Both the position numbers and the translations under genes were made by a program. The notes beneath the pieces are model-generated. The model saw only the letters and a program-made list of their open reading frames with translations. It made no database searches and had not been told where the DNA came from. From Escherichia phage vB_EcoM_DalCa, in the sequence record NC_054908.1: a stretch of 64,000 nt of DNA; one strand, written 5' to 3'. This document shows, piece after piece, positions 20,268 to 25,127 of the stretch. Each line of letters begins with the position of its first letter. The stretch's first letter is position 1.

Positions 20268-20630
20268 TTAAAAGAATTTAAACTTTTTCTTTGACCTTTT
20301 ATTGAATGCATCTTGCAGTTGCATTGTAATACATTTTTCTACATGAGGAGCTAACTCAGCTTTTCTTTCTTGGTCAAGAACAGCAAAGTCCATTACAACC
20401 TTTCCATCAACCCAATCCAGTTTAGTTACATACACTATATGTGTAGAACCATCTTCTAGTTTAATGACAATCTCCTGGATAACATTTTCCATGGCAGATT
20501 TAATTATCTTAAGAGACTCATTAAAAAGACGTTCTTTTCTTTCTTCTTCCCCCTCCGAAGAGGGGGATTCATCGATAATTTCTAGATCTAAATCTAAATC
20601 ATCTTTATTCATTAAATTCTTCCATATCAC
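20268..20630 (-). CDS. 40: gp40 head vertex assembly chaperone
   Basis: 120 aa ORF between uvsX and 41 as in T4. Confidence 0.65.
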   Translation of the reverse strand: MIWKNLMNKDDLDLDLEIIDESPSSEGEEERKERLFNESLKIIKSAMENVIQEIVIKLEDGSTHIVYVTKLDWVDGKVVMDFAVLDQERKAELAPHVEKCITMQLQDAFNKRSKKKFKFF

Positions 20631-21786
20631 TTAACTGTTCGAGGTCAGTTTCTAAATCAGCAGCTGATTTACTTTTACTTTCTGGAGATTTAAATTTTTC
20701 AACCTTTGAGTTAATCAATTCATCAACTTCAGCTTCAACAATTTCATTACTATCAATAGCACCTAACTGATAAGCACGTTTAATAGCATCTCGGAATGGT
20801 TGATGCTTAAATAAAGGACCCCAGAATGTAGTGCAGTTGGTATCTTTTGCACGCCAAGATTTTTCTTCGCGAATCATCTCGCCGGTTTCTTCATCAAGAA
20901 ATTCACGAGCATACCAACCATTTTTAGGTTTTACCACAAATCCTAATTCTAGAGCCATATCTAACAATCCAGAATAAGGATCGATACCACCGTCAAATTT
21001 AACATCAATAAAGAATTTACTTTTTTCTTTAACGGTACGAGATTTTTCTACATTTAGAACAAATTGATACCCCTGAAGATCAGAACCATCTTTAATCTGA
21101 CGCTTACCGATAATGAATACGGTATCAGCCGAATACATTACGCCTGTACCACCTGTCATCACGGTTTTACTAAACATTTCAATGGTTTCAATTGTATGGT
21201 TAACTGCAACACATGGAATATTTTTAATGCTAAAATAAGGAGTAACAATACGGAATAATGACTTCAGTGATTTAGCACGAGTCATATCTGCCACAGATTT
21301 TTCATTCAAGGCATCTTCAGTTTCTTTCTTAGAAGCCATATTACCAATTGAATCGATGAATACAATAACTTTTTCACCACGCTCAATAGTTTCAAGCTGA
21401 TTCACCATATCAATTTTCAGCTGTTCAACTGACTGGATTGGCGTATGAATTACTCGTTCTGGGTCAACTCCCATAGACTTAAGATAAGCCGGAGTGATAC
21501 CAAACTCTGAGTCATAGAACAAACAGATAGCATCAGGATACTTATTCAAATAAGCTGCTACCATTGTCAGTGACATATTAGATTTAAAATGTTTAGAAGG
21601 CCCTGCGAAAATAGTTAAACCAGACTGCATACCGCCATCAATCGCACCAGAAATAGCAATATTAAGCATTGGAATTTTTGTACGAATTACATCCTTTTCA
21701 TTAAAGAATTTAGATGTAGTCAGTTCAGCAGTCATTTTAGAAGTGGAAGCTTTAATCAAACGGGATTTTAAATCTGCAATAGACAT
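20605..21786 (-). CDS. uvsX: UvsX recombinase (RecA-like)
   Basis: 393 aa; N-terminus closely resembles T4 UvsX; RecA-like P-loop region. Confidence 0.9.
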   Translation of the reverse strand: MSIADLKSRLIKASTSKMTAELTTSKFFNEKDVIRTKIPMLNIAISGAIDGGMQSGLTIFAGPSKHFKSNMSLTMVAAYLNKYPDAICLFYDSEFGITPAYLKSMGVDPERVIHTPIQSVEQLKIDMVNQLETIERGEKVIVFIDSIGNMASKKETEDALNEKSVADMTRAKSLKSLFRIVTPYFSIKNIPCVAVNHTIETIEMFSKTVMTGGTGVMYSADTVFIIGKRQIKDGSDLQGYQFVLNVEKSRTVKEKSKFFIDVKFDGGIDPYSGLLDMALELGFVVKPKNGWYAREFLDEETGEMIREEKSWRAKDTNCTTFWGPLFKHQPFRDAIKRAYQLGAIDSNEIVEAEVDELINSKVEKFKSPESKSKSAADLETDLEQLSDMEEFNE

Positions 21787-21863: not shown

Positions 21864-22706
21864 TTAATCAACTGCTATTGGATGAATAGCATTAAACTTA
21901 TGAAATGCTTCTGATTTTTCTTTACGCGAAACGCACATGCGAAGAACCTTTAATGGCTCGTCTTCTTCACCCAACGATTTTCGTTTTTCAATATTAGAAG
22001 TTTTCCAACGAGCTTGCTCTGGAAACTCTCTATTGATTTGCTCAAGCGCTCTATTATGTTTAGAATTACTACGAATTGAACTGCACCCTCCAGGAGCTTG
22101 TGCTTTTCCAGATACAACCAGATATTTGAACAAGGCCAAATGCGGATAACCTTGATTAATTAAATTGAGAAATGCATACATATCTTCGCACAAATCAATT
22201 TTTCCATACCCAATTTGTTCTGTCGTAAGTTTTCCAAGGTCATACCATGTATTCGTGAATCCATATGAATTTTCACGATAATTACCCCAAGATGAAGTAA
22301 TTTTAAAAATTGGTAGGCGAGCATGACCGTGATAATACCCACAATCCATGGCATCTTCGACGTATTGAATCAATTCATAGAACTGTTCACGAGTCAATTG
22401 ATTGACTTTATCCACACAACGACGATCATCTCTTTTTCGCATTGAACTCATACGAATAGTAGTATCATCGTCAATCATCCAGATTCGTTGACCTGCATAC
22501 ATATCAGTAATTGCTTTACGAGTACCGGCAATTCCATTAACATCATCAGGAATAGTTACAATTTTAGCTTTAGACCCATAGGCATCATAATAAGCTTTTT
22601 CTTCATGTTCACGTACTACGATATGAGGTTCATAATCAGTCGGAAACATATCAAGGGCAGAAACTGCCCCTACACGTTGATAGCTCGGAATTACGAATTG
22701 AATCAT
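21864..22706 (-). CDS. GT-A-fold glycosyltransferase at the beta-gt locus (possibly beta-glucosyl-HMC-alpha-glucosyltransferase type)
   Basis: 280 aa; N-terminal IPSYQR and DxD-like IDDDTT motifs; not similar to remembered T4 beta-gt (351 aa). Confidence 0.6.
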   Translation of the reverse strand: MIQFVIPSYQRVGAVSALDMFPTDYEPHIVVREHEEKAYYDAYGSKAKIVTIPDDVNGIAGTRKAITDMYAGQRIWMIDDDTTIRMSSMRKRDDRRCVDKVNQLTREQFYELIQYVEDAMDCGYYHGHARLPIFKITSSWGNYRENSYGFTNTWYDLGKLTTEQIGYGKIDLCEDMYAFLNLINQGYPHLALFKYLVVSGKAQAPGGCSSIRSNSKHNRALEQINREFPEQARWKTSNIEKRKSLGEEDEPLKVLRMCVSRKEKSEAFHKFNAIHPIAVD

Positions 22707-23344
22707 TTAAGTGCCTTACATTTATCAAAATGGTATCTTGTCATATTTGGCCCACGTCCTTTTAGTCCGCAATGCGGACATATTTTTTCTATCAAATTAT
22801 GAGGTTTTCCTTTACGATTTTTAGACATCGTTTCTTTAATTATTTTAGCTTTTTCTACGCCAAAAATTTCTTCATAAGTTTTACCAGAATTTTCCTTGGC
22901 TCGATTTATAATTCCATATGCCTGCTCATTTTTACCATACATTGGATTACCTTCGCCTTTCATTCTTTTAGAATGATCAGGACGCTTGATTCCACGAAAG
23001 GCATTTCCGCACTTATATCTTTCTTCTGGAGATAGTTTTTTACCGTACATTCCATTTAATTTGCCTGGAAAACTTCCTCCCCATGCTTCATTCTTTAAAT
23101 TATATGAATCCGGACAATTAGCAGCATCTAAACAAGTTAAAATAATTTCTTCAACCTGTCTAAACATTGGTCCTTCATATAATATTTCTTTATTAAAGGA
23201 TTTTATTCCATATTTCTTTTTAACATGTTGCCAAACTACACCCGAACCATCATAATTCGGGTTGTGACCATCATGACTTCCTATATACCACTTTTTAGTT
23301 TTAGGATGTTTATACTTATAAACATGCGGCACATTTACTTCCAT
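22703..23344 (-). CDS. GIY-YIG homing endonuclease (Seg-like)
   Basis: 213 aa; N-terminal VYKYKHPKTKKWYIGS GIY-YIG-like motif; NUMOD-like repeats GKKLSPEERYK, GNPMYGK, GKPHN; C-terminal CPHCG. Confidence 0.75.
   Translation of the reverse strand: MEVNVPHVYKYKHPKTKKWYIGSHDGHNPNYDGSGVVWQHVKKKYGIKSFNKEILYEGPMFRQVEEIILTCLDAANCPDSYNLKNEAWGGSFPGKLNGMYGKKLSPEERYKCGNAFRGIKRPDHSKRMKGEGNPMYGKNEQAYGIINRAKENSGKTYEEIFGVEKAKIIKETMSKNRKGKPHNLIEKICPHCGLKGRGPNMTRYHFDKCKALK
22703..23344 (-). mobile_element. free-standing homing endonuclease gene inserted between glycosyltransferase gene and gene 42
   Basis: HEG overlaps the upstream gene by 4 nt and gene 42 by 10 nt; no ORF lies here in T4 gene order. Confidence 0.65.
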
Positions 23345-24075
23345 TTTCCAGTATAATCCTTTTTAGCAATATGAGTCTCACCGGTGTTCCACCAATGGTC
23401 AACTAAATAAAACTGATTTTCGTACACATGAAGACTTCCAACGTTCCATATAATAGAACCTGCTTTATATTGCCGCGATGGGTCGCCTGCATTCAAATCA
23501 GATACTAATTTATCTAGTACGTATTTTTGCCAAGCATAATCATTACGATAGCCTGCCCAGCAATCATTGCTTCTCATGCTAACAACCGCATTGACTTTCT
23601 TATCACGAATCAGGTACTGTACTGTATTAGTACACATGAAATCTGACATACCATCTTTATTGTAGTCAAATTGCATGGATGGACGAGTATAAATCATGAT
23701 ACCACGTCGAGAATCAGGATTTTGACCAAGTTCAGCTAAACACATATCATACTGGGCATAGTTATCTTCTGACCAAATAGCCCAACCATAATTCGAGTTA
23801 ATTTCGCCTTTAGAAGATGCTACCTGCTGCCAAATCTTTGGTGTTTCACCTGGAATATCTTTAACAAACAAACTCTTAGATTTATACCATTCAAGTTCAC
23901 GCTGAATGTATTCATCATTAAGAGCGCCAAAAATAAACGGTTCATCTGCTACAAATGATGCGCCAATAATTTCAATAGTTTTAACACCGGTTTTATCAAC
24001 TACGAAATCTTTTTCTTTTAATGCAAGCCCCAAATGAAGACGGATTTCTTCAACTGTCATAGAGTCACTAATCAT
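23335..24075 (-). CDS. 42: dCMP hydroxymethylase gp42
   Basis: 246 aa as T4 gp42; thymidylate-synthase-like fold expected. Confidence 0.9.
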   Translation of the reverse strand: MISDSMTVEEIRLHLGLALKEKDFVVDKTGVKTIEIIGASFVADEPFIFGALNDEYIQRELEWYKSKSLFVKDIPGETPKIWQQVASSKGEINSNYGWAIWSEDNYAQYDMCLAELGQNPDSRRGIMIYTRPSMQFDYNKDGMSDFMCTNTVQYLIRDKKVNAVVSMRSNDCWAGYRNDYAWQKYVLDKLVSDLNAGDPSRQYKAGSIIWNVGSLHVYENQFYLVDHWWNTGETHIAKKDYTGKWK

Positions 24076-24082
24076 TTAAACC

Positions 24083-24232
24083 TCAATTGATACATTCATA
24101 TTTAACTTGTAACAGTAATAAACCCCACCCTATGATAAGAGTTGGAATCATAAGAGGAACCGTTACACTATAGTATATACTTATTATAATCATCAAGATT
24201 AAAAGCAACACTGCTATAATTTTGCTTTTCAT
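24083..24232 (-). CDS. small hydrophobic protein
   Basis: 49 aa ORF (MKSKIIAVLLLILMIIISIYY...), codon-checked; ATG overlaps imm stop as ATGA. Confidence 0.4.
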   Translation of the reverse strand: MKSKIIAVLLLILMIIISIYYSVTVPLMIPTLIIGWGLLLLQVKYECIN

Positions 24233-24878: not shown

Positions 24879-25127
24879 TCAAATACAAGTAGTAATTACT
24901 CCAGTAGTGCTTACACAGATATTACCTAATTGAACACCCAGCGTTCCATTAGTATTCATATGAAGATTATCATCAATTTTTGTTGATACTTTACCATTCA
25001 TGTGAATAACAGTATTAGATTCAATCACATTCTGAGTATCATTTTCAACACTAACAAATGGAACTGCTGCTAATGCAACTAAACAAACTGCTAAGCATCC
25101 CATAACAATTTTCATTTTATTCTCCAA
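24879..25127 (-). CDS. secreted/periplasmic small protein
   Basis: 82 aa; N-terminal signal peptide. Confidence 0.5.
   Translation of the reverse strand: MENKMKIVMGCLAVCLVALAAVPFVSVENDTQNVIESNTVIHMNGKVSTKIDDNLHMNTNGTLGVQLGNICVSTTGVITTCI

Follow-up and report, generated by a model that had tools for sequence, protein, structure and literature searches.

Described endonucleases of T-even phages

The free-standing endonucleases of phage T4 typically cut hundreds of base pairs (bp) away from their own position, inside a functionally critical neighbour gene (PMC2988022). SegA is an active endonuclease that cleaves uvsX, and SegF and SegG cleave T2 gene 56 and gene 32 at a distance, with localized marker exclusion and co-conversion as the outcome (PMC2988022). 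No seg gene is listed at the junction of gene 42 and the glucosyltransferase gene (42|gt) in the 2010 review of mobile elements of the T4 family (PMC2988022). Here we describe an open reading frame (ORF) found at this junction in a 64,000-nucleotide (nt) stretch of Escherichia phage vB_EcoM_DalCa (NC_054908.1), referred to below as the window. The seg ORF occupies positions 22703..23344 on the minus strand, starts with ATG and encodes 213 amino acids (aa); its assignment draws on the ORF listing, a match to PHROG314, the ratio of nonsynonymous to synonymous polymorphism (pN/pS) and the identity to SegA. Its product is probably a free-standing Seg-family homing endonuclease, which would cut the canonical form of gene 42, the dCMP hydroxymethylase gene, at a short stretch that is recoded in the donor (patch 1, below).

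Like the seg ORF, T4 segA lies in the 42-uvsX interval and belongs to the same size class (221 versus 213 aa). The two proteins are 32% identical over 167 aa, have the Y-x-GSG and KKYG motifs in common, contain a SegE-type GIY-YIG domain without the Arg helix, and are each encoded beside the gene thought to be the target (PMC2988022). They are not orthologues, however: segA occupies the gt|uvsX rather than the 42|gt junction, its target is uvsX whereas that of the seg ORF is presumed to be gene 42, and pairwise BLAST gave no match of SegA to the C-terminal CCHC module of the seg ORF protein.

I-TevI is the best structural match. It has the GIY-YIG fold, its catalytic Y, Y, E and N positions align with those of the seg ORF protein, as does a NUMOD3-like segment (GENNSFF versus GEGNPMYG), and its host gene, like that of its relative I-BmoI, belongs to the thymidylate-synthase family. 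I-TevI is intron-encoded and ends in a zinc finger and a helix-turn-helix, whereas the seg ORF is free-standing, lacks the R27 helix and ends in a CCHC knuckle; the sequence similarity between the two is marginal (hhalign probability 68%). I-TevI cuts 23-25 bp from the intron insertion site, unlike the seg ORF protein, for which a cut some 200-250 bp from its gene is predicted.

The resemblance to SegF and SegG concerns the way of life. In all three cases a free-standing gene lies downstream of or beside an essential conserved gene, cleavage occurs or is expected hundreds of bp from the endonuclease gene, and the co-conversion of intervening markers by SegF and SegG matches a 250-nt donor-type tract that we found in gene 42. 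Cleavage and marker exclusion by SegF and SegG were shown experimentally, whereas for the seg ORF the evidence consists of population-genomic footprints.

Linkage of the seg ORF to a variant gene 42

Gene 42 (23335..24075, minus strand; PF00303, PHROG160), the presumed target gene, lies 5' of the seg ORF. Identity of the window copy to those of T2 and T4 is 96% in nt 1-480 and drops to 78-79% in nt 481-741. When 8 Tequatrovirus loci with the seg ORF (ORF+) were compared with 6 loci without it (ORF-), 42 fixed differences were found, and all 42 fell within the last 250 nt of gene 42; there were none in the preceding 490 nt of the gene, in the 700 nt further 5' or in the 2 kb downstream. Identity of the beta-glucosyl-HMC-alpha-glucosyltransferase gene (ba-gt) to the window does not split ORF+ from ORF- phages, and this gene, having no fixed differences, is not linked to the seg ORF.

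The divergence is concentrated in four patches, all given here on the minus strand, between which the sequence is identical to that of T2. Patch 1 (nt 492-528 of gene 42; 23548..23584) holds 19 of the fixed differences and changes MRSND-VVFGF-R to MRSND-CWAGY-R, so that the window codes VVS-MRSND-CWAGY-R; within it the Arg codon is switched from CGC to AGA and the Ser codon from TCA to AGC. Patch 2 (nt 594-603; 23473..23482) turns DST into DPS. Patch 3 (nt 654-663; 23413..23422) turns HVY-SRH-F into HVY-ENQ-F; it shows co-inheritance in Tequatrovirus, yet some lineages with a seg gene (seg+) lack it. Patch 4 (the last ~50 nt; 23336..23386) is a divergent 3' end, which creates both the ATG of the seg ORF (GAGTGG to AAATGG) and a new gene 42 stop codon, TAA.

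The association holds well beyond the loci compared. Over a 552-nt probe spanning the patches, identity to the window is 95.8% or higher in all 76 ORF+ records, and the two most divergent of them retain patches 1, 3 and 4. A 60-nt probe for the variant patch 1 detected 88 records, 76 of which contain the seg ORF, while the ~450 other records with a gene 42 match are canonical in sequence, and the seg ORF is absent from all of them. This strict one-sided association backs the proposal of the first-pass annotation, made from the window alone, that the target is probably in the neighbouring gene. Since the seg ORF occurs only with the variant, the variant also occurs without the seg ORF, and a carrier must lack its own target, the variant would be the immune form of the target. 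Linkage reaches 250 nt upstream, across stretches identical in ORF- phages, and less than 100 nt downstream. Because this upstream-only linkage spans sequence shared with ORF- phages, the asymmetry argues for selection over plain hitch-hiking.

Patch 1 appears to be the best candidate for the target: no other patch is common to all close seg+ lineages, its differences are the most densely packed, it forms the distal edge of the tract, and its Arg and Ser codon-family switches alter the DNA while keeping the catalytic residues. The predicted target site is the T2-type sequence ATGCGCTCAAATGACGTGGTCTTCGGATTC, which the window would carry at 23548-23584 in an immune form. A distance of ~200-250 bp between the cut and the gene is plausible, as it matches the behaviour of the free-standing T4 endonucleases (PMC2988022).

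The canonical patch 1, ATG CGC TCA AAT GAC GTG GTC TTC GGA TTC CGT AAT GAT (MRSNDVVFGFRND), encodes MRSNDVVFG|FRND and is a paralogue of the td site. Exon 1 of T4 td ends with ...CAA CGC TCA GTA GAT GTT TTC TTG GGT (QRSVDVFLG) and exon 2 starts with CTA CCG TTT AAT (LPFN), and this exon junction, QRSVDVFLG|LPFN, places the td intron and the I-TevI homing site on the active-site loop of thymidylate synthase. If the prediction for patch 1 holds, two T-even GIY-YIG endonucleases exploit the same motif in two genes of the thymidylate-synthase family, one from within an intron and the other as a free-standing gene.

The same pattern in Jiaodavirus and distant homologues

The first-pass annotation took the ORF for a lineage-specific mobile element, and this part of its reading did not survive: homologues lie at the 42|gt junction of Jiaodavirus and beside thymidylate-synthase-family genes in unrelated phage contigs. 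Ten records of Jiaodavirus (Klebsiella phages) have a homologue at the same junction, with 65-70% aa and ~74% DNA identity, and in most Jiaodavirus records the junction is empty. Gene 42 is dimorphic there as well. JD18 and KpV477, without seg, have the loop VVFGY, Ser codons TCT and TCG, and ERH and SRH at patch 3, respectively; KLB2 and Mexia, with seg, both have CWAGY, Ser AGT and QNQ; and VMC02, a variant-only recombinant without seg, has CWAGY, Ser AGC and QNQ.

Over nt 1-480 of gene 42, the window and KLB2 are ~28% different, yet the window patches AATGATTGCTGGGCAGG, AAAATCAGTTTTAT and CATATTGCTAAAAAGGATTAT match KLB2 nucleotide for nucleotide. Within nt 481-741 the window and T2 differ at 54 sites; KLB2 has the window base at 32 of these and the T2 base at 12. 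The 250-nt donor-type tract of gene 42 that is present in all ORF+ genomes, a mosaic with Jiaodavirus-identical patches, may be an indirect footprint of co-conversion.

We examined nine more distant homologues (43-70% identity), found in a Yersinia phage and in contigs from metagenomes or sequencing runs. Each of them immediately follows a PF00303 gene on the same strand. Their other flank varies and comprises a T4-type beta-gt, a 276-aa ORF, small ORFs, an IMPDH-like gene, dCMP deaminase with DNA polymerase A, a helicase or a nucleotidyltransferase. The xWAG motif is found in all seg+ lineages that are at least 52% identical, and an AGY Ser codon in all that are at least 56% identical; the switch of the Ser codon family from TCN to AGY occurs alongside seg in five lineages. 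At patch 3 the seg+ lineages read ENQ, QNQ, SRH or ERQ, and two contigs, L032 and L033, combine CWAG with SRH. Patch 3 (SRH to ENQ) was therefore rejected as a universal correlate and as a target candidate equal to patch 1. Its co-inheritance in Tequatrovirus is accounted for by covariation with the WAG motif at the protein level: among 120 gp42 homologues (P0071-P0190), 74 have xWAG[YF] with H-V-Y-x-x-Q, 31 have x[VI]FG[FY] with H-V-Y-x-x-H, and ~8 are mixed, which suggests that the two forms may be alternative structural solutions.

These comparisons bear on the question of whether a homing endonuclease has its target elsewhere, namely at the very 3' terminus of gene 42, at the 42|gt junction (a sequence interrupted by the insertion) or in patch 3, with patch 1 merely co-converted or hitch-hiking. 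Patch 4 and the junction are altered in every ORF+ genome, there are ORF-less recombinants, such as BYEP01, that have patches 1-3 and yet a T2-type junction, and WAG-type gp42 is widespread independently of seg, all of which such a target would accommodate. A site spanning the junction would not be conserved, however, because the downstream partner differs between seg+ lineages (ba-gt, T4-type beta-gt, the 276-aa ORF, small ORFs, IMPDH, dCMP deaminase), and contigs L032 and L033 have seg but read SRH at patch 3. The linkage of patch 1, moreover, persists over 125 nt of T2-identical sequence and is gone within 100 nt downstream, and the TCN to AGY switch of Ser tracks seg in the five lineages. 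We consider a target other than patch 1 unlikely.

A wider proposal can be put forward tentatively, as one we doubt more than we believe: the seg ORF may belong to a widespread clade of free-standing GIY-YIG enzymes specialised on thymidylate-synthase-family genes, which would recognise the DNA of the universally conserved R-S-x-D...G active-site loop as I-TevI and I-BmoI do, and the pressure to escape them may have helped to spread the change from VVF...H to CWA...Q, an alternative active-site solution of dCMP hydroxymethylase, by repeated inter-genus gene conversion. If this were true, a selfish nuclease would shape the catalytic-site sequence of an essential enzyme, and the clade would comprise free-standing counterparts or relatives of I-TevI and I-BmoI, which exploit this motif in td and thyA.

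The seg ORF protein

We collected 70 homologues of the seg ORF protein by database search, down to 30% identity, and aligned 30 of them. The protein matches PHROG314 ('homing endonuclease') at 8e-30. Matches to other profiles are sub-threshold for the protein itself: 2e-4 and 21 bits for TIGR01453 (cut-off 56 bits), and 18 bits for Pfam NUMOD3 (cut-off 20.4; E 0.0027; residues 125-138). When the 30 aligned homologues were scanned singly, NUMOD3 was detected in 19 (best 4.5e-10), PF19835 (SegE_GIY-YIG) in 11 and PF01541 in 6. An AlphaFold model built on the 30-homologue alignment has a mean predicted local distance difference test score (pLDDT) of 86.6, exceeding 90 throughout the GIY-YIG domain, with strands at residues 7-12, 19-24 and 51-57 and helices at 36-45 and 61-72. 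The top Foldseek matches of the model in the Protein Data Bank (PDB) were 1mk0 and 1ln0, the I-TevI catalytic domain (probability 1.00, template-modelling score 0.66 on the target, root-mean-square deviation ~3 Å (2.9)). A PDB sequence search with the protein alone gave nothing meaningful, and the family profile reached I-TevI only at E 0.05; as the sequence searches are weak, the fold assignment depends on structure prediction and Foldseek.

The protein consists of a GIY-YIG domain (aa 7-90), NUMOD3-like repeats (aa 94-138), a helical region and a CCHC knuckle (aa 186-209). The nuclease domain (23075..23326, minus strand), delimited by AlphaFold, Foldseek, HMMER/hhalign and conservation, has the order beta-beta-alpha-beta-alpha, and its conserved positions include Y9, Y20/G22, Y31-GSG35, E65 and N82. 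Invariant or nearly so among the 30 homologues are Y9, Y20, G22, Y31, G33-S34-G35, K44, G46 and N82: Y20 and G22 are strictly invariant, Y9 and N82 are conserved in at least 90%, and E65 is Glu in most, falling below the 90% listing. The GIY-YIG motif reads HVY(9)-x10-WY(20)IG(22), the leading Gly being Pro/His in the seg ORF copy. Alignment of the HMMER profile and hhalign, the latter run with an I-TevI sequence taken from the T4 genome, agree in equating Y9 with I-TevI Y6, Y20 with Y17, G22 with G19 and N82 with N90, and hhalign equates E65 with E75. The GIY-YIG-like N-terminus noted by the first-pass annotation is thus real but atypical, as seen from the PHROG314 match, the I-TevI fold match and the Pfam matches of homologues, and the catalytic tyrosines, Glu and Asn are all present on the I-TevI alignment.

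The NUMOD-like repeats reported earlier were likewise found: in the seg ORF protein they lie just below the threshold, and in the 19 homologues they are significant. The two repeats (NGMYGKK...; ...GEGNPMYGK) map to 22931..23065 on the minus strand, and the NUMOD3-type positions N97, M99, S125, G130, N133, P134 and G137 are almost invariant in the alignment. At the C-terminus (22718..22789, minus strand) the alignment reveals a CCHC zinc-knuckle-like motif, CPHCG-x12-H-x3-C, all four residues of which (C189, C192, H205 and C209) are invariant across the 30 homologues; the model shows this region as a short beta-hairpin and a helix. According to tblastn, the same C-terminal module recurs in other phage endonucleases of the HNH and GIY-YIG types.

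Nine intact Tequatrovirus copies differ at 27 polymorphic sites, 22 of them at third codon positions, with pairwise pN/pS of 0.00-0.11. Given these ratios and the third-position bias, the seg ORF protein is under purifying selection. That the ORF is a chance one in a spacer and not a gene, as the mere 'hypothetical protein' annotation in many records might indicate, is refuted for practical purposes by the PHROG match, the 70 homologues, the confident fold and the polymorphism bias. The seg ORF is a real, intact gene of the T-even Seg-type GIY-YIG family, inserted exactly between gene 42 and the glucosyltransferase gene.

Insertion site and distribution

In the window, the ATG of the seg ORF lies inside the end of gene 42 (10-nt overlap), and its TGA stop overlaps the ATG of ba-gt by 4 nt (ATGA). 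The ba-gt gene, which forms the 3' flank, encodes 280 aa at 21864..22706 on the minus strand (PHROG842 at 2.8e-89, PF20691). The coordinates of the 213-aa ORF and its overlaps with both flanking genes had been given correctly by the first-pass annotation, which regarded the short overlaps as the signature of an insertion; this does not follow, as 42 and ba-gt overlap by the same ATGA at the empty site. Alignment with the empty 42|ba-gt junctions of T2, RB3 and ECML-134 gave a net insertion of 632 nt (22707..23338, minus strand), whose boundary is uncertain by 1-2 A residues: the empty junction reads ...GAGTGGAA|ATGATTCAA... and the filled one ...AAATGGAA|GTAAATG...CTTAA|ATGATTCAA....

DNA of the seg ORF was found at 95% identity or more in 76 records of the phage collection, all of them Tequatrovirus-like. 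Identity of the Tequatrovirus copies is 97.5% or more. The same glucosyltransferase gene occurs in ~475 Tequatrovirus records, so that only these 76 of the ~475 have the ORF, which is far from universal in T-even phages, and the exact empty site, with 42 and ba-gt overlapping directly as ATGA, is seen in six relatives (T2, RB3, ECML-134, phiD1, ECML-363 and Killian). The statement that T4 has no gene at this junction proved right: in T4 a non-homologous beta-gt stands beside 42 with nothing between them, and segA follows one gene further on (beta-gt|uvsX). Several copies of the seg ORF are damaged through frameshifts or deletions, by a 1-nt insertion in Shinka, with lengths of 641 nt in REP2/REP3 and BCH953P2 and 639 nt in MLP2, and by a split into two in PYps5T, as expected for the decay phase of a homing cycle. 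Taken together, the sporadic presence, precise empty sites, damaged copies, purifying selection and conserved neighbour gene are consistent with the population signature of a homing endonuclease gene.

Public annotation of the ORF varies between hypothetical protein, 'putative homing endonuclease', 'site-specific intron-like DNA endonuclease' and 'SegD'. The last label, used in one record, was rejected as a sign of orthology to T4 segD, which sits between genes 23 and 24; the seg ORF reaches at most ~35% identity in T4, in the segC region (tblastn). A full-text literature search revealed no study of a seg at the 42|gt junction, a weak negative because most subscription journals lie outside it. 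The seg ORF is uncharacterised; the gene itself is present in dozens of public genomes.

Arguments for and against homing into gene 42

A number of observations weigh against a homing endonuclease that targets patch 1. The seg ORF protein itself has no match to Pfam GIY-YIG, and the segment that bears R27 in I-TevI falls into a 10-residue gap of the seg ORF family in both the HMMER and the hhalign alignments, so the catalytic Arg is missing. Neither a promoter of its own nor a clear ribosome-binding site was found for the seg ORF. The variant patch 1 occurs without the seg ORF in 12 records; part of the association could stem by descent from one insertion into an allele that already existed. 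The recombinants with the variant allele and without the seg ORF include BYEP01, VMC02 and GCA_024790105 (an NCBI assembly): BYEP01 has variant patches 1-3, but its gene 42 ends with 45 nt of T2 type and its junction is precisely empty, and GCA_024790105 has CWAGY with SRH and the gene order 42, ba-gt, segA-like gene, uvsX. The distant seg homologues in contigs L026 and L029 adjoin thymidylate-synthase-family genes with the canonical CGC TCA codons; the specificity has probably drifted within the clade. Finally, the xWAG...Q form of gp42 occurs naturally, and often, in distant homologues (74 of the 120). The idea that the CWAGY allele is unique to seg-bearing phages was rejected on these grounds, and the WAG/Q form, being so common, is, as judged from the homologues, one that was recruited or imported and not invented as an escape allele.

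Some of these points would also suit a Seg-like protein that has been domesticated or is inactive, such as a DNA-binding regulator or a factor interfering with competitors; it would do no homing, and its link to gene 42 would be descent from one insertion. The canonical GIY-YIG helix bearing the Arg is missing, a function beneficial to the host would equally give strong purifying selection, and the identity of at least 97.5% among all Tequatrovirus copies is compatible with one origin. T4 SegA, however, lacks the same helix and is nevertheless active, cleaving uvsX (PMC2988022); frameshifted copies occur; and a second genus has the same junction occupied and the same gene 42 dimorphism. The presence of the seg ORF is patchy amid mosaic flanks, and since ORF+ phages have ba-gt alleles that do not form a single clade, repeated recombination is required. 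A protein that has given up homing is, in our estimate, very unlikely. By alignment, the Arg helix is absent from the whole SegA/SegE-type subgroup, T4 SegA included, and since SegA is recorded as active with the same arrangement (PMC2988022), the domain of the seg ORF protein is best classed as a SegA/SegE-type GIY-YIG variant and not as a dead domain.

For the favoured homing endonuclease, the following mechanism may be proposed. The seg ORF probably shares a transcript with gene 42, its translation starting at the ATG that overlaps the last gene 42 codons; co-transcription and translational coupling are assumed from this overlap. The N-terminal SegA/SegE-type GIY-YIG domain would serve as the nuclease, and the NUMOD3-like minor-groove repeats together with the C-terminal CCHC knuckle would bind DNA. 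In a mixed infection with a phage lacking seg, the enzyme would cut the canonical gene 42 allele, most likely in the stretch coding for the active-site loop MRSND-VVFG(F/Y)-RND, ~200-250 bp upstream of the insertion point. Repair of the double-strand break by the phage machinery would then copy the 3' end of the donor gene 42 and the endonuclease gene into the recipient. The donor would be protected by its own recoded stretch of gene 42, AGA AGC AAT GAY TGC TGG GCA GGC TAT.

The seg ORF adds an uncharacterised seg to the classical T-even set (segA-G, segH), one with a testable target in gene 42, and what it adds in particular is the link, across genera, to a recoded active-site stretch of gene 42 and to thymidylate-synthase-family genes. 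A natural experiment is offered by the two genera, in both of which sensitive, immune-plus-endonuclease and immune-but-cured alleles occur, and these alleles can be used to study the life cycle of homing endonucleases and nuclease-driven amino-acid change in the active site of an enzyme. In practical terms, localized marker exclusion would be predictable in co-cultured therapeutic or laboratory Tequatroviruses, and the enzyme may add a GIY-YIG specificity to those available for I-TevI-type fusions in genome engineering.

Expression signals and the surrounding cluster

No TATAAATA late promoter was found within kilobases of the seg ORF. Sigma-70-like and terminator-like matches did not exceed what chance would give, the one exception being a hairpin within ba-gt, and the RNA around the seg ORF start codon folds no better than shuffles (z -1.1). 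The hairpin is G+C-rich, TAGGGGCAGTTTCTGCCCTTG, with a T-rich tail, and lies at 22652-22672 on the minus strand, ~35 nt inside the 5' end of ba-gt; it is kept in the ORF-less T2, RB3 and ECML-134, and the fPS-2 annotation calls it a terminator.

The seg ORF belongs to the Tequatrovirus replication/recombination cluster, whose order on the minus strand is 43, imm.1, imm, 42.1, 42, seg ORF, glucosyltransferase gene, uvsX, 40, 41. Its 42-uvsX interval is a hot spot in which endonuclease genes occupy three or more different insertion points: the seg ORF, segA or a segA-like gene, and an apparent insertion at uvsX. In the window, uvsX (20605-21786) is intact and encodes 393 aa. HY03 (L008 4059-4988 and 5032-5642) and BYEP01 (L017 3679-4608 and 4652-5258) have a 930-nt uvsX (310 aa) followed by an ORF annotated as 'NUMOD3 motif protein', an arrangement repeated in L021 and L022, and this looks like a further endonuclease gene in or after uvsX. 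A 221-aa segA-like GIY-YIG gene with a PF01541 match lies between ba-gt and uvsX in L034 (4085-4750) and L035 (2424-3089); in Tequatrovirus genomes of this type, gene 42 is the recombinant with CWAGY and SRH. Directly after its seg homologue, Klebsiella phage vB_KM5a1-KLB2 has a 251-aa 'site-specific intron-like DNA endonuclease' (L006 4629-5384). This second ORF takes the position of the glucosyltransferase gene in Mexia, which places two endonuclease genes in tandem.

A further variable spot of the same cluster is formed by small ORFs between 42 and 43, at 24083-24232 and 24879-25127 of the window (minus strand), whose presence varies among relatives. One of these variable ORFs is 42.1 (49 aa); an 82-aa ORF with a TTG start lies 5' of imm.1, and its counterparts in HY03, phiD1 and T2, of 78-85 aa, are annotated as hypothetical.

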